Assembly: GCF_000943555.1 (NCBI RefSeq)
Contig: NZ_JTDV01000002.1
Coordinates: 296,831-360,830, forward strand
Source: Neotamlana nanhaiensis
GTDB lineage: Bacteria; Bacteroidota; Bacteroidia; Flavobacteriales; Flavobacteriaceae
Length of the DNA stretch: 64,000 nucleotides
Direction: 5' to 3'
This document shows, one piece after another, positions 2,225 through 36,688 of the stretch; within the stretch, counting starts at the first letter, position 1; each line of letters opens with the position of its first letter. A program made the translations under genes and the position numbers. A model generated the notes under the pieces. The model saw nothing but the letters and a program-made list of their open reading frames with translations, did no database searches and was not told the DNA's origin.

Positions 2225-3555
2225 GCGCAGATATAAGTTTTAAACATATCAACAAATTAGCCATTCCCGCTTTAATTGCCGGTGTTTCCGAGCCCATTTT
2301 ATCACTCACCGATGCCGCTGTGGTTGGCAACATCTCACAAAATGCCACCGAATCGTTGGCAGCAGTGGGTATTGTAACCACCTTTTTATCGATGCTTATT
2401 TGGGTATTAGGGCAAACACGTAGCGCCATTTCATCCATTGTGTCGCAATATGTAGGTGCGAACAAGTTAGACGAAATCACCAACTTACCAGCACAAGCTA
2501 TTTTTATAATAACATCATTAAGCTTGCTTATTATTTTCGGCACTTATCCGTTTGCACGACCTATTTTTAAACTATATAACGCGAGTCATTTAATTTTAGA
2601 TTACTGCGTAGATTATTACCGCATTCGTGTTTTTGGTTTCCCGTTTACGTTATTCACCATAGCCGTTTTTGGCGCATTTAGAGGTTTACAAAACACCTTT
2701 TACCCCATGATAATAGCTTTAATTGGCGCTGCTTTAAATATTGTTTTAGACTTTATTTTGGTTTACGGCATCACCGACATATTACCGGCAATGAACATAA
2801 AAGGTGCCGCGTACGCCAGCGTCATTGCCCAAATTATTATGGCTTTATTGTCGGCATTTTATTTACTTAAAAAAACACCGATTCCTTTAAAGTTGAGTTT
2901 TCCGTTTAATAAAGAAATTAAAAAATTCATTTTAATGATTTTAAATCTCTTTGTGCGCACGCTGGCATTAAACGTCACCCTATATTTTGCGAGTTCGTAT
3001 GCCACCAGTTACGGTGCAAATTATATTGCGGCTTATACCATTGCTATAAACTTATGGTTTTTGGGCGCTTTTATAATTGATGGTTACGCCAGTGCAGGAA
3101 ATATTTTATCGGGAAAACTTTACGGTGCAAAACAGTACAATTTACTCATTCAATTAAGCAACAAACTGATAAAATATGGCGTGGTTTTAGGCATTTCTAC
3201 AGCCCTTATTGGCACTATTTTTTATTATCCTATCGGAAGAATTTTTACCAACGAAACCGAAGTTTTAGAAGCCTTTTATTCCATTTTCTTTGTTGTGTTA
3301 CTCATGCAACCCTTGTGTGCTCTCGCCTTTATTTTCGATGGTATGTTTAAAGGCTTAGGCAAAATGAAATACCTTAGAAACGTCCTCCTATTTTCAACCT
3401 TCGTAGTATTTGTACCGTTACTGCTAGCATTAGATTATTTTGGGTATAAACTCAATGCTATTTTTATCGCTTTAACCATTTGGATTATCGCTCGCGGCCT
3501 ACCGTTAATAGTTAAATTCAGGCAACTATTTTTACCGCTTGCTAAAAACCACTAA
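2221..3555 (+). CDS. MATE family efflux transporter.
   Basis: 12-TM hydrophobic profile and MATE-like N-terminus (INKLAIPALIAGVSEPILSLTD). Its start overlaps the stop of the upstream gene (ATGA). Confidence 0.8.
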   Translation: MSADISFKHINKLAIPALIAGVSEPILSLTDAAVVGNISQNATESLAAVGIVTTFLSMLIWVLGQTRSAISSIVSQYVGANKLDEITNLPAQAIFIITSLSLLIIFGTYPFARPIFKLYNASHLILDYCVDYYRIRVFGFPFTLFTIAVFGAFRGLQNTFYPMIIALIGAALNIVLDFILVYGITDILPAMNIKGAAYASVIAQIIMALLSAFYLLKKTPIPLKLSFPFNKEIKKFILMILNLFVRTLALNVTLYFASSYATSYGANYIAAYTIAINLWFLGAFIIDGYASAGNILSGKLYGAKQYNLLIQLSNKLIKYGVVLGISTALIGTIFYYPIGRIFTNETEVLEAFYSIFFVVLLMQPLCALAFIFDGMFKGLGKMKYLRNVLLFSTFVVFVPLLLALDYFGYKLNAIFIALTIWIIARGLPLIVKFRQLFLPLAKNH

Positions 3556-4219
3556 ATTTACGTTACCACTAAACGTTGTATTTATGGATTATCTACAAGC
3601 CTCGTATTACCTCGATTTTAATCATAAAAACATTAAAAAAATCACATCAAAATTTAATGATGGTGGTTTATCCGATAAAGAAAAAGCCATTAAACTATAC
3701 ACCTTTGTTCGCGATAATTGGTTGTACAATCCCTATGATATTACCTTGTTAAAAGATCATTACAAAGCGAGCTTTATTGCCGAAAAACCATCGGGTAATT
3801 GCATAGAAAAATCGGTACTGCTTGTGGCTTGCTTACGCGGATTACATATTCCAGCGCGTTTGCATCTTGGTAAAGTAAAAAATCATATTGCCGTAGATAA
3901 ACTCACCGAAAAATTTGGAAGTAACGAGCTCACACCGCACGGCATGGTAAATGTATATTTAAACGACAAATGGCTAAAACTATCGCCTGCTTTTAACAAA
4001 TCGCTTTGCAAAAAATTTAACGTACCGCCTTTAGATTTTGATGGTGAAAACCACTCTTTTCTGCAACAATACAACAGCAAAGGCAATTTGTTTATGGAAT
4101 ATTTAGACGATTACGGACATTTCGCTGATGTGCCCCTCGATTTTATGAAAGCAAACATAAAAGAACATTACCCACATATTTTTGACACCGATGAATCTAT
4201 AACAGAATTTAATCTGTAA
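3539..4219 (+). CDS. Transglutaminase-like cysteine protease domain protein.
   Basis: GNCIEKSVLLVACLRGLHIPARL resembles the transglutaminase-like core Cys motif. Confidence 0.5.
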   Translation: MLKTTKFTLPLNVVFMDYLQASYYLDFNHKNIKKITSKFNDGGLSDKEKAIKLYTFVRDNWLYNPYDITLLKDHYKASFIAEKPSGNCIEKSVLLVACLRGLHIPARLHLGKVKNHIAVDKLTEKFGSNELTPHGMVNVYLNDKWLKLSPAFNKSLCKKFNVPPLDFDGENHSFLQQYNSKGNLFMEYLDDYGHFADVPLDFMKANIKEHYPHIFDTDESITEFNL

Positions 4220-5113: not shown

Positions 5114-5569
5114 ATGAGCAACCATATTCGCATTACAAAACAGTTTTCTTTCGAGACAGGACACGCCCTTTACGGCTACGACGGCAAGTGTAAAAACGTA
5201 CACGGCCACAGTTATAAACTCTCGGTAACGGTTATTGGCACGCCAATTTCCGATGTTAATAATGTAAAATATGGCATGGTAATCGATTTTGGCGACCTAA
5301 AAAAAATTGTAAAAGAAGAAATTGTTGACGTGTTCGATCATGCCACCGTTTTTAACAAAAACACCCCACACGTCGAGCTCGCCAAAGAGTTAAAAGATCG
5401 TGGACACAACGTGCTGTTGGTAGATTACCAACCCACCAGCGAAATGATGGTTATCGATTTTGCCAAAAAAATAAAAAAGCGCTTACCCAAACACATCAAC
5501 TTACACTCGCTAAAGCTACAAGAAACCGACACCTCGTATGCCGAATGGTTTGCTTACGATAATATTTAG
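5114..5569 (+). CDS. queD: 6-carboxy-5,6,7,8-tetrahydropterin synthase (QueD / PTPS family).
   Basis: FETGHALYGYDGKCKNVHGHSYKL carries the CxxxHGH zinc motif. Confidence 0.8.
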   Translation: MSNHIRITKQFSFETGHALYGYDGKCKNVHGHSYKLSVTVIGTPISDVNNVKYGMVIDFGDLKKIVKEEIVDVFDHATVFNKNTPHVELAKELKDRGHNVLLVDYQPTSEMMVIDFAKKIKKRLPKHINLHSLKLQETDTSYAEWFAYDNI

Positions 5570-20126: not shown

Positions 20127-20798
20127 TTATTTTTTTCCGCCTACAATAATAACAATTTCTCCTTTAGGCAGCTTGTTGGTGTAATAATCTAACACCTCTT
20201 TGGCTGTACCTCGAATGGTTTCTTCAAACATTTTAGTTAATTCACGAGAAACCGATACCTCTCTGTCTTCACCAAAATACTCGCAAAAATGCCCAAGGGT
20301 TTTTACTAATTTATGTGGGCTTTCGTAAAAAATCATGGTGCGGGTTTCTTCGGCGAGTAATGTTAATCGGGTTTGACGCCCTTTTTTTACAGGTAAAAAA
20401 CCTTCGAATATAAACTTATCGTTTGGTAAACCGCTGTTTACCAATGCAGGCACAAATGCCGTAGCACCTGGTAAACATTCAATATCAATTTCGTTTTCTA
20501 TACAAGCTCTTGAGAGTAAAAAACCTGGATCGGAAATAGCAGGTGTACCAGCATCGCTTACCAAAGCAATGGTTGTTCCTGCTTTTAATTTTTGTATGAT
20601 ACTGTTAACCGTTTTGTGCTCGTTATGCATATGGTGCGACTGCATTGGTGTTGCAATTTCGAAGTGTTTGAGGAGCTTGCCCGATGTTCGCGTGTCTTCG
20701 GCTAGTATTAAATCCGCTTCCTTTAGTACCTCAATGGCACGAAAGGTTATGTCTTTTAAATTGCCTATTGGTGTTGGTACAATGTAGAGTTTACTCAT
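20127..20798 (-). CDS. rsmI: 16S rRNA (cytidine1402-2'-O)-methyltransferase RsmI.
   Basis: N-terminus LYIVPTPIGNLKDIT. Confidence 0.9.
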   Translation of the reverse strand: MSKLYIVPTPIGNLKDITFRAIEVLKEADLILAEDTRTSGKLLKHFEIATPMQSHHMHNEHKTVNSIIQKLKAGTTIALVSDAGTPAISDPGFLLSRACIENEIDIECLPGATAFVPALVNSGLPNDKFIFEGFLPVKKGRQTRLTLLAEETRTMIFYESPHKLVKTLGHFCEYFGEDREVSVSRELTKMFEETIRGTAKEVLDYYTNKLPKGEIVIIVGGKK

Positions 20799-20812
20799 GT
20801 GTTAGTGATTGC

Positions 20813-20929
20813 AGTGGCATCCTTTTTTTATTGAACGGGCTTTAAAATAATTTAAAAAACCTATTACATGTTGAAGTGCTTTAACATTGCAAATGTATTA
20901 CAAATAATAAAAAAAGATATAACGAAAAG
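20813..20929. repeat. Bipartite dispersed element copy A (AGTGGCATCCTTTTTTT ... AAAAAAGATATAACGAAAAGC).
   Basis: Matching halves recur at 36607-36655 and, as a reverse complement, at 32598-32632. Confidence 0.5.
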
Positions 20930-20977
20930 CACGACCGCGCTTGCGATAGCTATTTTAGCGCGGTAACACCCAAAAAC

Positions 20978-27391: not shown

Positions 27392-28303
27392 ATGCTTAAC
27401 GTACAAAATCTAACATTTTCATATCAAAAATCACCTATTTTAAAAGACATTTCTTTTAAGGTTGATATAGGCGAAAATCTTGCTGTTATTGGTGAAAGTG
27501 GCTCAGGAAAAAGTACGTTGCTTAATCTTATTTATGGTGAATTTGATTTAAACCAAGGACAAATCTTTTGGAAAGACACCGAAATTCTCGGTCCTAAATA
27601 CAACTTGGTTATTGGTTACGATTTTATGAAATATGTACACCAAGAATTCGATTTGATGCCATACATAAGTGTTTCCGAAAACATTTCGAAATACCTCTCT
27701 CGATTTTATCCTGAAGAAAGCGAAAAACGCACCAACGAACTACTAAAAGTTGTAGAATTAGAGGCTTTTGCAAACGTGAAAGTAAAAACGCTATCTGGTG
27801 GACAAAAACAACGCGTCGCTTTAGCTAGAGCATTAGCAAAACAACCTGAAATTATCTTGTTGGATGAGCCTTTTAGCCATATTGATAATTTTAAAAAACA
27901 AAGCTTACGACGTAATGTGTTTAAGTATTTAAAAGACAAAAATATTACGTGTATTGTGGCGACTCACGATAAAGAAGATGTTTTAGGGTTTGCCGACACG
28001 ATGATTGTACTAGAAAACCAACAAATTTTAGAACAAGGCAAACCAGAAGCGTTGTACAACAATCCCAAAACACCATTAATTGCTTCGTTTTTTAGTGAAT
28101 TTAATGTGATTGATGACCAAATTGTTTACGCAAATCAGTTGAAAGTCATTGATAAATCTAATCTAAAGGCAACTGTAATTACCTGTTATTTTAAAGGCTA
28201 TCATTATTTAATTGAAGCTGATTTAAAAGAAGAAAAAGTATTTTTTGAGCATGATACTTCAATAGAAAAAGGTCAAGAGGTTTTCTTGTCAATTTCGGAA
28301 TAA
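27392..28303 (+). CDS. ABC transporter ATP-binding protein.
   Basis: Walker A GESGSGKST, signature LSGGQKQR, Walker B ILLDEP. Confidence 0.85.
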   Translation: MLNVQNLTFSYQKSPILKDISFKVDIGENLAVIGESGSGKSTLLNLIYGEFDLNQGQIFWKDTEILGPKYNLVIGYDFMKYVHQEFDLMPYISVSENISKYLSRFYPEESEKRTNELLKVVELEAFANVKVKTLSGGQKQRVALARALAKQPEIILLDEPFSHIDNFKKQSLRRNVFKYLKDKNITCIVATHDKEDVLGFADTMIVLENQQILEQGKPEALYNNPKTPLIASFFSEFNVIDDQIVYANQLKVIDKSNLKATVITCYFKGYHYLIEADLKEEKVFFEHDTSIEKGQEVFLSISE

Positions 28304-29292
28304 TTCTTAACCGATTGCTTTAGTTTCTTCAAAATGCGATCTCTTAATTTTTTTGGTTTTAAAACTTCAATACTATCACCAAAGCCTAAAATAAGTCGTT
28401 CTAACTCAAAATTATGCTGAACGAAAATATTGAAAATTGTACCGTCATCTCTAATTTCAATGGTTCGTTGCGATGAGTGAAACGGTTTTGTAATTACATA
28501 AGGTGCGTTTTTTTTATCAACCCAAAACTGTACGCGTTGCGCTCTATAATTTGCTACCGTAACGCCAATGACTTCCTTGTAGTATGTATCACCATCAATT
28601 TGTAAATCAACATAATCTACGCCGTTTTCAACATCGATGTTTAATATTCTATCTAAAGCTAAAGTCATCATTTTTTGTTTGTGAGACGCCAGCAAAAACC
28701 AACGGTTATTAAATTCTTTTAACAACTGAGGATGCACTTGCATAACGCTAGAAGTTCTTGCAGAGAACGATTGATATGATACTTTAATCACTTTTTTATT
28801 TTGTATCGCGTTATAAATAACATCAATAAACTCTAAACCTTTTAGCTGTTCGTTTTTGTCTAAATGAATAATAGCGCGATTGTCCTTTTGCGACGCATAA
28901 ACCGAATCTTCTAAACGCTGTAAAACGCCATCCATTTCTTTAAACAACGAGAAGTCTTTAAATTGCCTTAGCACTTGTATAGCTTCGTTCATTACCTTAA
29001 TATCTTTATCGGTTACTGGTATGTTTACAATGCTGTATTCAGGATCGTCATATTTATAAAATTTACGGTTATAAACCACTATTGGAGCATTATATCCAAG
29101 CTTATCACTACGCATCATTTGTATATCTAACTGCACTGTACGTTTGCTCACATCAATGTCTTTACCTTCGTACTCATAAAGCGCATCAGAACAAACGGTA
29201 ATTAAGTCGTCAAGTGTCCATTCCCGATAATTGTTTTGAAGACATTTATCAATGGTTTTATATCTAATTAATGCATTTTTATTTACAGCCAT
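28273..29292 (-). CDS. WYL domain transcriptional regulator with BrxR/CapW-like wHTH-WYL-WCX architecture. Start moved to MAVNKNAL.
   Basis: N-terminal wHTH (MAVNKNALIRYKTIDKCL), a central WYL-like segment (VIKVSYQSF...VHPQLLKEFNNRWFLLASH), and a C-terminal ELERLILGFGDSIEVLKP tail. Confidence 0.65.
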   Translation of the reverse strand: MAVNKNALIRYKTIDKCLQNNYREWTLDDLITVCSDALYEYEGKDIDVSKRTVQLDIQMMRSDKLGYNAPIVVYNRKFYKYDDPEYSIVNIPVTDKDIKVMNEAIQVLRQFKDFSLFKEMDGVLQRLEDSVYASQKDNRAIIHLDKNEQLKGLEFIDVIYNAIQNKKVIKVSYQSFSARTSSVMQVHPQLLKEFNNRWFLLASHKQKMMTLALDRILNIDVENGVDYVDLQIDGDTYYKEVIGVTVANYRAQRVQFWVDKKNAPYVITKPFHSSQRTIEIRDDGTIFNIFVQHNFELERLILGFGDSIEVLKPKKLRDRILKKLKQSVKNYSEIDKKTS

Positions 29293-29333
29293 TTTTCTCA
29301 ATTTTTTCGAATGAAATAAAGGTAAATAATTTC

Positions 29334-29352
29334 TGCGCAATTAATTTGCGTA
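29334..29352 (-). promoter_or_regulatory. Operator-like motif O1 (TACGCAAATTAATTGCGCA on the minus strand), about 40 bp upstream of the WYL regulator start.
   Basis: Same TACGCAAA-N3-ATTGCGCA pattern as at 30401 and 32707. Confidence 0.5.
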
Positions 29353-29841: not shown

Positions 29842-30390
29842 ATGGACACGAATTTGTTAAACAACTACGTGCTTAAAGCTATAGATGCCTATCCATACGA
29901 TTTAGAAGAAACCGTAGAAAACCTAAACTACGCCTTGTCTTACGAAAGTAACAACGCTTACGCTTTGTATTTAATGGGACGATTACAAGCAGAACAATTA
30001 GGCGATTACGAAAAAGCCAAACAATTTTATGCAGAAGCGTTGGCAAGTAAAATGGAGTTTCACAAGGTTTATGAGAAATACATTTTAGTATTAATCTGGA
30101 ACGACGATTACGAAGCAGCGCAAAACTTAATAGACTTTGCGTTAACCGTAAAAGGCATAGACAAAGGTGTTATTTGGCAATGTCAAGGATTGCTTTTTGA
30201 AAATCAGCAAGACTATAAAAAAGCCATAAAAGCATTAAAAACAGCAAAAGCATTTGGTTACAACAATGGTTTTATCAGTCATATTGATAACGAAATATCC
30301 AGAATAAAAGACAAGATAAAACCCAAAAAGAAAAAAGCCTCTAAGAAGAAAAAGAGCAAAAAAGACAAGAAAAAGAAGAATAAAAAATAA
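29842..30390 (+). CDS. TPR-like helical repeat protein with a C-terminal poly-lysine tail.
   Basis: Repeats YALYLMGRL..YEKAKQFY and a KPKKKKASKKKKSKKDKKKKNKK C-terminus. Confidence 0.6.
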   Translation: MDTNLLNNYVLKAIDAYPYDLEETVENLNYALSYESNNAYALYLMGRLQAEQLGDYEKAKQFYAEALASKMEFHKVYEKYILVLIWNDDYEAAQNLIDFALTVKGIDKGVIWQCQGLLFENQQDYKKAIKALKTAKAFGYNNGFISHIDNEISRIKDKIKPKKKKASKKKKSKKDKKKKNKK

Positions 30391-30400
30391 TTTTTCAAAC

Positions 30401-30436
30401 TACGCAAAAACATTGCGCAATAGCGTAAAATATTTG
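30401..30436 (+). promoter_or_regulatory. Promoter-like block P1: operator motif O2 (TACGCAAAAACATTGCGCAATA) followed by a -7-like TAAAATATTTG.
   Basis: Near-identical to the block at 32707-32742. Starts 10 bp after the TPR gene stop and faces the ORF-free region. Confidence 0.5.
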
Positions 30437-30867
30437 CAGAGTCATTAACAATAAGCTTTGTGGAATCAAGCTTAATGTAACAGCAGCGCTTCACCAGTCG
30501 CAGGAACTGGTGAAGCTTATTAAAAGTTCTTAAACATTTAAAAAACAACCATAGTTTGATTTGCATATAATGGATAATCAAAATTTCTTGGAATGTAATA
30601 AAGCGAATTTTGTCGTTCAGAAGGAGGTACGACTGAAGAATCTCAAACAATCGAATTTCTCTTTGTTCGTTAATTCAAAAATTAAAAGAAATCAATTGTA
30701 TCCATAAAAACAGTAATCAAACTTAGGTGTAAAATATCAAGCAAGTCTTGTTGTGTGTTTCTGTATAGCACTATTGTATAAATCCTTGCGGTTTCGCATT
30801 AGGTTTTTATGTTCAACTTGACTTGAAGGTTTTCGGTTATTTAACCAAATAAATAATCCATCTATGT

Positions 30868-30968
30868 ACACAGGTTCGAATCCTGTCTTCTCTAACGGGA
30901 AGTAGCTTAGCGGTTAAGCAATAGATTCAAATTGTAGGTTCGAATCCTACCAAGATCTAACGGTCTTG
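30868..30968 (+). ncRNA. Candidate structured ncRNA: two tandem tRNA-like modules (T-arm-like hairpin plus a TCTAACGG-loop hairpin) with a D-arm-like hairpin between them.
   Basis: ACAGG-TTCGAAT-CCTGT and GTAGG-TTCGAAT-CCTAC. CTTC-TCTAACGG-GAAG and CAAGA-TCTAACGG-TCTTG. GCTT-AGCGGTTA-AGC. The stems covary while the loops are identical. Confidence 0.4.
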
Positions 30969-31453
30969 TGGCGAAATTGGCAAACGCGCTATATTTAGGT
31001 TACAGTTTTGAAAATGGACTTTAATCCATCTTTTTTGATCAAGAAGGTCACTTGTAAAAATCGACCACCGGTGTTGCCATCACGTAAAAAATGGCTCTAA
31101 AAACAAAAGCAAAGTATAAGTTGGCAAGCTTATGTAATTTTTACAAAAAGCAGTCTAGACAACACCTTGAAATACTAGTGTATTTAAAGTCACTTTGGGT
31201 AATCTTTTAAAGATTCATTTTTAAATTAAATCATTGAAATTATTTCGGTGTAAACATTTAAAAATCATCTACTAAACATTATGTAAAGCGCTATAAAACC
31301 ATAGTATTTCCGTAGTTAGAAAGATGGTTAACTTTTATTTTGCTTTAACAAAGAATAGATCATTTTCAGCATAAGCTTGAAAACCCTATTATAAATGTAT
31401 AACCGTTCTGATATTTAAAAAATAATGCAATCAGAACATAATAATTAGAAATC

Positions 31454-32548
31454 ATGAAGAGAGTAAGAATTCATGCAGGAAACGTAGGTTTAGTATTTAA
31501 AAACGGTGATTACAAACGCGTAATTACAAGTGGTACACATTGGTTAGGCTTTAACGAAACCGTTGCAAAGTACAGCTTAACTACAGCTTTTAATGCGCCT
31601 AAAGCATTGGAAATCTTACTAGAAGACCAAGCTTTAGCCAACATGTTACACGTTGTAAATGTAGAAGACAACCAAATTGTTTTAGTGTACACATATAACA
31701 ACTTTAAGCAAGTGCTAACCGCTGGTCAATACACCTTTTGGAACACGTTGGTAGACTATAAATTTGTTACTGTAGATTTAAGTAAAATCGAAATCACAGA
31801 AAACATTAGCAAGTCGTTATACACCAATATGCAATTAAGACAGTACATACGCGCTTTCGAAGTAGCAGCTTACGAAAAAGCCATTATGATTGTAGACGAT
31901 AAGTTCGATAAAATCCTAGATCACGGTACATACCACTTCTGGAAAAACAATCAAACTATAAAAATCGCAAAAGCAGATTTACGTCAGTTACAATTAGAAG
32001 TGTCAGGTCAAGAGTTGTTAACCAAAGACAAAGCAGCAGTGCGTATTAACTTTTACGCACAGTACAACGTAATCGATATCGAAACAGCATTAATGCAAAA
32101 TAAAGATTACGAAAAACAATTGTACACAAGCTTGCAATTAGCCTTAAGAGCATACGTTGGCGCTTACACCTTAGACGAATTGTTAGAGCAAAAAGACCAA
32201 ATAGCAAAAGCAGTTCTAGAAGACGTAAAAGCGCAAGCCAGCAAGTTAGGCGTAAACGTATTACATGCCGGTATGCGCGATGTAATTTTACCAGGCGACA
32301 TGAAAGACATCATGAACCAAGTATTAATTGCACAGAAAAAAGCGCAAGCCAACGTAATTACAAGACGCGAAGAAACCGCATCGACACGTAGCTTGTTAAA
32401 TACCGCAAAATTAATGGAAGACAACAGCATGTTGTTCAAATTAAAAGAAATGGAATACGTAGAAAAAATAGCCGATAAAATTGGCGAAATCACCGTAGCC
32501 GGAAACGTCATCGAGCAATTAAAAGATATTTTTTCAGTAAACAAGTAA
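31454..32548 (+). CDS. SPFH/band-7 (stomatin/prohibitin/HflKC-like) domain protein, cytosolic, with an N-terminal repeat domain.
   Basis: C-terminal half LGVNVLHAGMRDVILPGDMKDIMNQVLIAQKKAQANVITRREE is typical of SPFH. No TM helix is evident. Confidence 0.7.
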   Translation: MKRVRIHAGNVGLVFKNGDYKRVITSGTHWLGFNETVAKYSLTTAFNAPKALEILLEDQALANMLHVVNVEDNQIVLVYTYNNFKQVLTAGQYTFWNTLVDYKFVTVDLSKIEITENISKSLYTNMQLRQYIRAFEVAAYEKAIMIVDDKFDKILDHGTYHFWKNNQTIKIAKADLRQLQLEVSGQELLTKDKAAVRINFYAQYNVIDIETALMQNKDYEKQLYTSLQLALRAYVGAYTLDELLEQKDQIAKAVLEDVKAQASKLGVNVLHAGMRDVILPGDMKDIMNQVLIAQKKAQANVITRREETASTRSLLNTAKLMEDNSMLFKLKEMEYVEKIADKIGEITVAGNVIEQLKDIFSVNK

Positions 32549-32597
32549 TTTTTTGGGCGTAACCACGCTTTTAGTGGCGTGGTCGCGCTTTACGTTA

Positions 32598-32632
32598 TAT
32601 CTTTTGCAAGCAAAAGGATGCCACTTCAATCG
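32598..32632. repeat. Bipartite dispersed element copy C (reverse orientation, compact).
   Basis: CGTTATATCTTTT-GCAAGC-AAAAGGATGCCACT is the reverse complement of the two halves seen in copies A and B. Confidence 0.45.
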
Positions 32633-32706
32633 CTTACGCGGGCAGTCCGTTAAGAACGAGACTAACCACAAGTGTTTTTGAAGTCAGCAATGACCAAAAT
32701 TTATAA

Positions 32707-32745: not shown

Positions 32746-34230
<1,485 letters not shown>

Positions 34231-36533: not shown

Positions 36534-36606
36534 AAAAAAGTATTTTTTAAGTGATGTAAATGTACTTAATTTTTAATACTGTTGTTGGCTTTGTGTTAAG
36601 GATAGT

Positions 36607-36655
36607 AGTGGCATCCTTTTTTTGAAGTATGAGAAAAAAGATATAACGGATAGCC
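36607..36655. repeat. Bipartite dispersed element copy B.
   Basis: AGTGGCATCCTTTTTTT and AAAAAAGATATAACGGATAGC, separated by a 11-nt spacer. Confidence 0.5.
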
Positions 36656-36688
36656 TGACTTTTGCCCACGAAAAGGCAAAAGGAACAC

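Follow-up and report, generated by a model that had tools for sequence, protein, structure and literature searches.

The gap upstream of a slipin gene in Neotamlana nanhaiensis carries a conserved, heavily structured non-coding element whose core, as read from sequence comparisons, consists of two permuted tRNA-like domains. It occupies 30736-31453 on the plus strand of the window, that is, the whole stretch of 64,000 nucleotides (nt) analysed here (assembly GCF_000943555.1, contig NZ_JTDV01000002.1:296,831-360,830, forward strand), whose coordinates are used throughout. The order of genes around it is a WYL-WCX regulator on the minus strand, a TPR protein, the RNA, slipin and a divergent RtcB-family ligase. 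The favoured reading, to which a probability of about 0.6 is given, is that the element specifies a tRNA-mimic RNA of a slipin/RtcB repair module, where it would act as cofactor, tether or competitor. A first-pass annotation of the gap 30437-31453, made from the letters alone, had described tandem tRNA-like motifs and argued for a selected RNA structure rather than a scar. The results support that interpretation as essentially right, with an element much larger than was then thought.

Two tRNA-like modules in tandem

Twice on the plus strand, at 30873-30898 and 30937-30963, the T-loop sequence GGTTCGAATCC is followed by a closed hairpin with the loop TCTAACGG. Three copies of GGTTCGAATCC occur in the 64 kb against 0.01 expected; two of them lie in the modules and the third in a tRNA-Ala gene. 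The composite GGTTCGAATCC-N7-8-TCTAACGG is found twice in the window (0.00 expected). Both modules run in the order T-arm, 3' acceptor strand, loop, 5' acceptor strand, U8-N9 and D-arm. Their parts are as follows (bp, base pairs).

30860-30926, plus strand: module 1, circularly permuted, YrlA-type (from Rfam, the covariance model R1 described below, and covariation)
30860-30865/30921-30926, plus strand: module 1 closing stem, 6 bp, taking the place of the anticodon stem
30870-30886, plus strand: module 1 T-arm, ACAGG-TTCGAAT-CCTGT
30887-30902, plus strand: module 1 loop-closed acceptor stem, CTTCTC-TAAC-GGGAAG
30903-30904, plus strand: module 1 U8-A9
30905-30919, plus strand: module 1 D-arm, GCTT-AGCGGTT-AAGC; A26 is also assigned
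30934-31029, plus strand: module 2, permuted class-II (tRNA-Leu-like), from covariation in the 21-locus alignment A4
30934-30950, plus strand: module 2 T-arm, GTAGG-TTCGAAT-CCTAC
30951-30968, plus strand: module 2 loop-closed 7-bp acceptor stem, CAAGATC-TAAC-GGTCTTG, followed by UG
30971-30987, plus strand: module 2 D-arm of class-II type, GCG-AAATTGGCAAA-CGC
30989-31005, plus strand: module 2 anticodon arm, CTATA-TTTAGGT-TACAG, with one A.C mismatch in this genome
31014-31029, plus strand: module 2 variable-arm-like hairpin, ATGGA-CTTTAA-TCCAT

All the motifs that the first-pass annotation had listed are present, within 1-2 nt of where it had placed them, and the T-arm and closed hairpin of either module read as it described. 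Its D-arm-like GCTT...AGC exists too, at 30905-30919 and not at 30906-30920. The statement that no anticodon arm can be drawn is true of module 1 but wrong for module 2, whose arm lies just beyond the motifs then considered. An absence of open reading frames (ORFs) of 60 amino acids (aa) or more had also been claimed. This holds for 30651-31453, where the longest ORF has 48 aa, but fails further upstream on a 123-aa minus-strand ORF (30279-30650), which is probably spurious because it overlaps the TPR gene and the non-conserved part of the gap.

The variable loop of module 1 is the 4-nt GTAC, whose final C is the Levitt partner of G15. The anticodon loop of module 2 reads UU-UAG-GU, and its D-arm is presumably almost identical to that of E. 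coli tRNA-Leu. RNAalifold offers another D pairing for module 2: GUGGCG, the 5' side of the D-arm, joins the CGUCAC loop further downstream, and GG of the D-loop joins CC in ACCA. This was dropped in favour of the 3-bp D stem of the tRNA-Leu type because it shows no compensatory changes and because the partner is missing where the last module is Met- or Lys-like.

In a search with the Rfam covariance models, which the first-pass annotation had recommended as a check, the top-ranking family for the region is YrlA (RF02553; 36.2 bits, E 6e-6; its gathering score is 69 bits), aligned through T-arm, closed acceptor stem and D-arm. The tRNA family (RF00005, gathering score 29 bits) gives a partial match of 26.6 bits that bridges the D-arm of module 1 and the T-arm of module 2, leaving out the anticodon arm. 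Each acceptor stem is a local hairpin and not, as in a tRNA, formed from the 5' and 3' ends; ARAGORN calls neither module, its only calls being the tRNA-Ala and a tRNA-Met elsewhere in the window. The Rfam scan finds no ribozyme or other known processing motif in the region. The minimum free energy fold of 30855-30930 is exactly the module 1 structure (z = -2.17).

Module 1 resembles the 3' end of the tRNA-Ala(GGC) gene on the minus strand (1570-1600): ACAGGTTCGAATCCTGT-CTTCTCT, at 30870-30893, is close to ACGGGTTCGAATCCCGT-CTTCTCC. The likeness had been remarked upon in the first-pass annotation and is borne out for the T-arm and the 3' acceptor strand. It is either a lineage-specific relic or a coincidence, the acceptor stems being unrelated in other genera.

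The evidence that the modules are selected as RNA comes from related loci. The slipin alignment was used for a genome scan, and 80 Flavobacteriaceae loci out of at least 508 relatives were kept (labelled L001, L002 and so on). By simple pattern search, 78 of the 80 have two T-loops ahead of the slipin gene, at a distance of 410-850 nt (450-650 nt in most). Thirty-nine module 1 sequences were aligned with MAFFT, and the covariance model R1 was built from this alignment. R1 has a single real match in the window (30827-30927, 72.6 bits, E 1e-12) and at least one match in every one of the 80 loci, at 48-112 bits and always before the slipin gene. All matches fall on the plus strand, where G-U pairs are frequent, and the RNA is assigned to the plus strand for these reasons.

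The consensus fold that RNAalifold derives independently from the 39 sequences recovers the closing stem, the T-arm, the closed acceptor stem, the D-arm and an upstream hairpin, P1; 18 of its 26 pairs are compensatory. When the module 1 alignment is fitted to the covariance model (alignment A3), a step that favours structure although the MAFFT-based result agrees, 98.3% of the alignment cells pair, against 79.3% after shuffling and 40-50% when the partners are slid along the alignment. In A3, 21 of the 26 pairs have changed on both sides, and none of 500 shuffles reaches any of the observed measures. All 39 sequences keep the equivalents of U8, A14, a D-loop G and T54-Psi55-C56-A58. Because these elbow and core nucleotides are kept, a tRNA elbow within an L-shaped tRNA-like fold is expected.

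The compensatory changes first adduced were those between the two modules, and two paralogous copies in one genome do not amount to covariation. The covariation across species is genuine, however, and the orthologous regions of related Flavobacteriaceae keep the hairpins. The identity of the hairpin loops is lineage-specific: TAAC is shared by both modules here, and the loops of relatives differ. The strong compensatory variation, together with R1 matches in 80 of 80 loci, upholds the view that the structure is selected. It also makes scarcely credible the att-site scars that the first-pass annotation had raised as an alternative, or any other debris such as decayed remnants of a tRNA array. 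Long tRNA arrays do lie directly upstream in relatives, a tRNA-Pro stands at the site of 30538-30735 in the closest of them, and module 1 looks like the 3' end of the tRNA-Ala. But debris would not maintain the pairing of a "3' half" with a "5' half" by compensatory changes, nor hold a fixed position relative to slipin in all 80 loci, which span many genera. No integrase gene is found among the neighbouring genes. A phage origin of slipin was also considered and rejected, with one weak partial tblastn match in phage records and none in a scan of viral contigs.

In module 2 (A4), seven of seven acceptor-stem pairs and three of five anticodon-stem pairs are compensatory, while the D stem is invariant. 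Over the whole structure, 93.8% of cells pair (83.5% shuffled, 31-49% slid). U33 is found in all 21 loci and G37 in 20, and the triplet between them is UAG in nine, UCG in five, UUG in three and UCA, UUU, UUA or ACG in one each. A triplet in the loop of the hairpin that follows the anticodon arm is likewise variable. Because the anticodon drifts freely between species, module 2 is, to judge from its sequence, not a decoding tRNA. Other genera have a different last module, or a third one, of tRNA-Met- or tRNA-Lys-like type (CTACA-CTCATAA/CTTTTAA-TGTAG). The acceptor loop of the last module there is often N-CCA plus a short spacer, for example TCGAGACC-ACCA-TTTTA-GGTTTCG, which points to an origin from tandem tRNA duplicates.

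Such loops, seen in many genera, might also be read as belonging to permuted pre-tRNA genes. Module 2, and the third modules elsewhere, would then be circularised by RtcB, and RNase P and 3' processing would open the acceptor loop. The order of 3' half, linker and 5' half, the presence of all arms and the RNA ligase encoded next door fit this proposal. It is nevertheless most improbable, given seven triplets in 21 orthologous loci, UCA and UUA included. In the window, moreover, the anticodon stem has its A.C mismatch and the UAAC acceptor loops lack CCA; Rfam detects no processing motif, module 1 has no anticodon arm, and RtcB is missing from most of the loci that bear the RNA.

A structured element reaching the slipin gene

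Judged by blastn and MAFFT, conservation across the whole of 30736-31453 is about equal to that of the coding DNA on either side. Outside the two modules it comprises the following parts.

30736-30785, plus strand: invariant block ATCAAGCAAGTCTTGTTG...GTATAGCACTATTGTATAAATCC, candidate promoter/operator or RNA 5' end
30777-30811, plus strand: hairpin P0, arms TATAAATCC/GGTTTTTAT, inner stem TGCG-GTTT-CGCA (covariation by eye)
30812-30833, plus strand: conserved, apparently single-stranded TTCAACTTGACTTGAAGGTTTT, nearly invariant across genera
30835-30858, plus strand: hairpin P1, 8-bp GGTTATTT/AAATAATC, loop AACCAAAT with a CCAAA motif (RNAalifold)
31040-31066, plus strand: probable H-type pseudoknot (topology inferred)
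31040-31043/31051-31054, plus strand: pseudoknot stem A, CAAG/CTTG
31046-31049/31063-31066, plus strand: pseudoknot stem B, GGTC/GACC
31069-31084, plus strand: hairpin H, stem GTG/CAC here and AGTG/CACT, CAGC/GCTG or similar elsewhere
31106-31346, plus strand: 3' structured domain, about 240 nt (RNAalifold, 16 loci)
31106-31116/31336-31346, plus strand: 11-bp long-range helix closing the 3' domain, AAAGCAAAGTA/TATTTTGCTTT
31121-31126/31326-31331, plus strand: second helix of the 3' domain
31161-31176 and 31303-31317, plus strand: nearly invariant segments of the 3' domain, AACACCTTGAAATAC and GTATTTCCGTAGTT
31203-31213, 31217-31265 and 31235-31247, plus strand: hairpins inside the 3' domain
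31354-31390, plus strand: hairpin AATAG-...TTTTCA...TGAAAA...-CTATT
31405-31437, plus strand: hairpin GTTCT...AGAAC, directly before an A-rich leader and the slipin ATG

Each locus has one copy of the block at 30736-30785, invariably 65-80 nt before module 1; it is found at five mismatches or fewer in 65 of the 80 loci and is visible in all 39 loci inspected. Its departures are uncompensated, which makes a protein-binding or other sequence-specific site more likely than a helix. Within it, the invariant GTATAGCACTATTGTAT(A/G) at 30763-30785 holds the direct repeat TGTATA-N7-TGTATA, and its 3' half is the 5' arm of P0. In Anabaena, TGTWNWWNW repeats control the promoters of a tRNA array and of rtcB (PMC8421152); the direct repeat here, TGTATAGCA-CTAT-TGTATAAAT, is only loosely like that operator.

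The covariation of P0 was judged by eye: in the inner stem TGCG/CGCA is exchanged for TACC/GGTA or TACT/AGTA, and in the outer stem ATAAATCC/GGTTTTTAT for ATGAAGT/ACTTCAT. The segment TTCAACTTGACTTGAAGGTTTT that follows has no covarying partner in the aligned loci. In P1, six of the seven pairs modelled in A3 have changes in both partners, with 97.8% of cells paired. A kissing contact of CCAAA in the P1 loop with UUUGG in the module 2 loop was rejected, as the two are complementary in few genera only.

Loop 3 of the pseudoknot is the A-rich TAAAAATC, and the structure is followed by ACCG here and by ACCA in most relatives. All four pairs of stem B are compensatory in A4, and in other genera this stem has 6 bp and covaries (TGGTTA/TAACCA, AGATCA/TGATCT, TTATCA/TGATAG, GACCA/TGGTC). 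Stem A alternates, by eye, between AAG/CTT and GAG/CTC; it is misaligned by MAFFT, so that only 72.6% of its cells pair. Hairpin H is present across genera, with three of four pairs compensatory in A4; its loop is TTGCCAT here and a conserved GUCA(C) in relatives.

The 3' domain and the hairpins of 31354-31437, aligned in 16 loci, make up 73 pairs, 28 of them compensatory. For these, 94.1% pairing is obtained against 86.3% shuffled and 34-47% slid, figures that are optimistic since the structure was derived from the same alignment on which it was tested. In the hairpin at 31354-31390 four of six inner-helix pairs are compensatory and the outer helix is invariant; the hairpin at 31405-31437 is conserved without changes on both sides.

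Upstream of the element, the approximately 200 nt at 30538-30735 are specific to this lineage; their site is occupied by a tRNA-Pro(UGG) gene in L001 and L002 and by a tRNA-Tyr gene in others. This segment may be a replacement or an insertion and is a candidate carrier of this genome's promoter. Further upstream still is the 11-bp hairpin GCTTCACCAGT...ACTGGTGAAGC, downstream of the TPR gene on the plus strand. It sits at 30488-30516, slightly off the 30486-30515 originally given for it, is kept in L001-L006 and has the compensated variants GCTCCACCAG/CTGGTGGAGC in L025 and L026. Although the terminator scan of the window did not flag this hairpin, it is probably the terminator of the TPR gene and need not belong to the tRNA-like RNA.

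Gene neighbourhood and proposed role

The genes that flank the element are listed here.

28273-29340, minus strand: gene of the divergent WYL-WCX regulator (Pfam WYL and WCX)
29842-30390, plus strand: gene of a small TPR protein (Pfam TPR matches), with a lysine-rich C-terminal tail, KKKKASKKKKSKKDKKKKNKK
31454-32548, plus strand: slipin (SPFH/Band-7) gene (Pfam Band_7, E 4.5e-30)
32815-34230, plus strand: divergent RtcB-family RNA ligase gene (Pfam RtcB, E 1.6e-37, residues 194-448 only)

Homologues of the slipin are annotated as slipin family proteins, with the closest relatives in Mesoflavibacter and Winogradskyella. The RtcB-like protein scores 79 bits against an NCBIfam cut-off of 407, and its first 190 or so residues have no Pfam match. 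The WYL-WCX protein is presumed to be the transcription regulator of the locus. The TPR protein could bind RNA as a part of the system. Between 25.2 and 38.1 kb, the genes encode a peptidase, an ABC ATPase, the WYL, TPR, Band_7 and RtcB proteins, a GreA-like protein, a transglycosylase, a DAO oxidoreductase and a biotin carboxylase.

In all 80 loci the RNA precedes slipin, and in 45 a TPR gene comes before the RNA or a tRNA array. Many distant loci have convergent genes behind slipin, which makes slipin the tightest partner of the RNA. Outside Flavobacteriaceae, a profile protein search and three contig look-ups disclosed similar arrangements. Lachnospiraceae loci have, by Pfam, WYL, WCX, a gap of about 500 nt, Band_7 and RtcB; a Chitinophaga locus has WYL/WCX, a gap and Band_7; and a Niastella locus has a tRNA array, a gap, Band_7, DinB and RtcB. 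R1 matches the gaps of both Chitinophagaceae loci, at 53 and 56 bits. One Lachnospiraceae gap folds alike, with a closing stem, a T-arm, a closed stem and a D-like arm (z = -2.7). In the Chitinophaga locus (L083), two YrlA-like modules stand in tandem at 3469-3598, before a 501-aa Band-7 protein, and no RtcB gene is called within 4 kb downstream.

Several further features were noted at these loci. In many related Flavobacteriaceae, arrays of up to 19 tRNA genes lie on the same strand directly upstream of the RNA and slipin (for example L044:400-2058, L069:666-2183, L012:93-1852 and L072:1872-3102); the window has no such array. The arrays include tRNA-Leu(UAG) and tRNA-Leu(UAA) genes of 74-77 nt without the long variable arm expected of a bacterial tRNA-Leu. 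The Flavo-1 RNA motif has three copies in the window, at 32577-32647 (minus strand), 20789-20940 (plus) and 36591-36664 (plus). The first of these lies between slipin and RtcB, a place it also has in three of 15 loci scanned with Rfam (L002, L007 and L022, near 5130-5207, minus strand). In L006, L010 and L021 about 100 nt are inserted after the ATG that aligns with the slipin start of the window, implying a different start or an N-terminal extension; some slipin homologues have 383-385 aa against 366 aa.

In the favoured reading, transcription would begin at a promoter near 30736-30800 and yield either an RNA of its own, ending near 31346, or a processed 5' part of a slipin-rtcB transcript. 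The mimic would bind the slipin oligomer, tRNA-recognising enzymes, or both. Broken tRNAs might thereby be recruited to RtcB-mediated repair or be outcompeted for it, by analogy with Y RNAs that tether Ro60 to an effector.

A number of observations weigh against this reading. RtcB is found beside slipin in only 27 of the 80 loci (26 downstream, one upstream) and WYL within the flank in 16, so the link to repair is drawn partly from other phyla and from the literature, and the proposed binding from gene linkage. The expression and the ends of the RNA are predicted features. A sigma-70 scan of the window stays at background level, and by eye neither a Bacteroidetes promoter (TTG-N19-TAnnTTTG) nor a correctly spaced sigma-54 promoter (TGGCAC-N5-TTGC) is seen near 30736-30810 or 31350-31450; no terminator is assignable from the window scan. 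The thermodynamic signal is weak, the fold energy of 30820-31040 alone (221 nt) being not significant (z = -1.29). Finally, the conservation does not stop before the slipin start codon, which accords with a cis-acting leader no less than with a free RNA.

This last point introduces the main rival, which we consider unlikely on balance but far from negligible. The element would be the 5' leader, about 700 nt long, of a slipin(-rtcB) mRNA and would work in cis as a sensor with tRNA-like bait modules. Cleavage of an anticodon-like loop, or binding of a tRNA-recognising factor, would alter read-through, stability or translation, and a cleavage product resembling the 5' half of tRNA-Leu(UAG) could in addition be a ligand of the WYL protein. 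The non-coding conservation is unbroken to the ATG, with no recognisable promoter between RNA and slipin. A weak hairpin with a U-tract (CCGTAGTTAGAAAGATGG and T-rich sequence, about 31311-31345) coincides in part with the 3' strands of the long-range helices and so resembles a terminator/antiterminator alternative; the equivalent site of L013 is flagged as terminator-like. In the anticodon loop of module 2, U33 and a purine at 37 are retained and the triplet is variable. In some genera a canonical terminator is inserted about 100 nt before slipin: L009, L013, L015, L019 and L033 have an insertion of some 66 nt with a GC-rich hairpin, ATCCCGC-TGAAAA-GCGGGAT, plus a T-run, about 100-170 nt before the slipin ATG, which is flagged as terminator-like in L013 (3886-3905) and not in L019. 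In L013 at least, the canonical look of this terminator suggests that the RNA can end before the slipin gene. On the other hand, the alternative pairings of this putative switch have no covariation of their own, and the related YrlA and Y RNAs are stable and trans-acting. It must also be noted that the leader and trans roles are compatible with each other.

A more elaborate proposal, which appears improbable, makes the element a single RNA of about 600 nt (30736-31346) with a built-in damage sensor. Its anticodon-like loops, with triplets that differ from species to species, would bait tRNA-cleaving toxins. A cut in the tRNA-Leu(UAG)-like module would release a 5'-half-like product with a cyclic phosphate as the ligand of WYL, in parallel with the activation of RtcR by tRNA halves via its CARF domain. 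Resealing of bait and cellular tRNAs alike would then fall to the slipin assembly and RtcB, and the long tRNA arrays of relatives would belong to the same stress module.

If the favoured tRNA-mimic reading is correct, the element bears on what bacterial RtcB repairs and on why tRNA-shaped RNAs accompany this ligase. Y RNAs have so far been understood only as partners of Ro60, whereas the present family is tied to slipin, with no Ro60 gene nearby. The mimic can be built of two or three permuted tRNA modules; one of these is a whole tRNA-Leu, rearranged, whose anticodon drifts freely. The mimic is embedded in a much larger structured RNA, often downstream of long tRNA arrays. The family is common among marine Flavobacteriaceae that can be cultured and extends to Chitinophagaceae, so the prediction is directly testable. 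A curated Rfam model would improve genome annotation.

Comparison with known systems

Plant-virus tRNA-like structures and transfer-messenger RNA (tmRNA) use mimicry of the T-arm and acceptor. The element shares this mimicry, and its pseudoknot followed by NCCA at 31040-31070 is a further likeness. It differs in having no demonstrated 3'-terminal CCA and no tag frame; the Rfam models of tmRNA and permuted tmRNA give 6-12 bits, at chance level. Permuted tRNA genes of Cyanidioschyzon merolae, described by Soma and colleagues in 2007, reportedly yield functional tRNAs with conserved anticodons through a circular intermediate. There, as here, the 3' half precedes the 5' half and a short linker closes the acceptor stem. 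Unlike those genes, the present modules have a drifting anticodon, and nothing indicates circularisation; the spread of triplets, the A.C mismatch and the UAAC acceptor loops set them apart from functional permuted tRNAs.

In cyanobacteria, long tRNA arrays stand next to rtcB, and translational stress induces both together (PMC8421152). Many of the related Flavobacteriaceae loci are comparable in carrying a same-strand tRNA array before the RNA. The window itself is without an array, however, and the element consists of permuted mimics, not of decoding tRNAs. The Rtc operon of Salmonella is activated, via a CARF domain, by 5' tRNA halves that have a cyclic phosphate end, those of tRNA-Leu(UAG) being the best activators.

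The closest structural relative is YrlA, defined by a Ro-binding terminal helix, a tRNA-like domain and an rsr gene within about 4 kb (Chen et al. 2014, PMC4201824). Module 1 has the same order of T-arm, loop-closed acceptor-like stem and D-arm on a connecting stem. Elbow nucleotides, an RtcB neighbourhood and tandem T-arm RNAs in one locus are likewise shared. In contrast, module 1 has only a 5-6-bp closing stem, and the terminal-helix positions of the model align with gaps, low posterior probability and non-canonical pairs. Candidates for a Ro-binding helix around module 1 (UUGAAGG/CCUUGAA, and UUGAC with the GUCAC loop of hairpin H) were rejected, as they are mismatched invariant segments without covariation. 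The second module with its full anticodon arm and the large 3' domain are additional differences.

That the element might even so be a canonical YrlA orthologue, whose Ro60/Rsr partner is encoded elsewhere in the genome, is very unlikely. YrlA is the top Rfam match and an RtcB neighbourhood is typical of rsr-yrl-rtcBA operons. But the window score falls far short of 69 bits, the ends of the model, which form the Ro-binding helix, are poorly aligned, and in an Rfam scan of 15 related loci every YrlA match stays below the gathering score. In Chitinophagaceae the YrlA model matches at 34-43 bits, over positions 23-87 (the tRNA-like part) only. No TROVE/Ro60 gene is found among the genes at 25.2-38.1 kb or among ten further window ORFs of 400-640 aa, and no rsr gene is near within the window; the partner is slipin in 80 of 80 loci, instead of Ro60. 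The RNA is thus YrlA-like, as its sequence indicates, through the tRNA-like domain only and is not a member of the YrlA family, because of the three features named by Chen et al. it has this one alone. The first-pass annotation, which had offered a YrlA-like or new tRNA-like non-coding RNA beside rtcB, was right about the affinity and the RtcB-family neighbour; a Y RNA in the strict sense it is not.

The best counterpart is the predicted b7a-tRNA. Wang et al. 2018 (bioRxiv 10.1101/312249) refer to Burroughs and Aravind 2016 (NAR 44:8525) for an RtcB gene that in some bacteria stands beside Band-7 and a b7a-tRNA. They call the b7a-tRNA experimentally unvalidated as of 2018 and "strongly resembling an authentic tRNA", and mention that YrlA is occasionally found next to Band-7. 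The present RNA agrees in adjoining a Band-7/SPFH gene, since module 1 precedes slipin in 80 of 80 loci and in Chitinophaga and Niastella. An RtcB neighbourhood is likewise found in the window, in Lachnospiraceae and in Niastella, but in only 27 of the 80 Flavobacteriaceae loci. The RNA differs from so tRNA-like a molecule in scoring below the tRNA thresholds and in having two permuted domains with about 400 nt of further structure. We infer that it may be the Flavobacteriaceae form of b7a-tRNA. Rfam has no family for b7a-tRNA and lacks the element, and the literature searched contains no experimental study of the element or its class. The finding itself is real and well supported. The element is best placed, as a variant of distinct structure, among the tRNA mimics encoded at RtcB repair loci, to which YrlA and b7a-tRNA belong, a class already predicted computationally in 2016.

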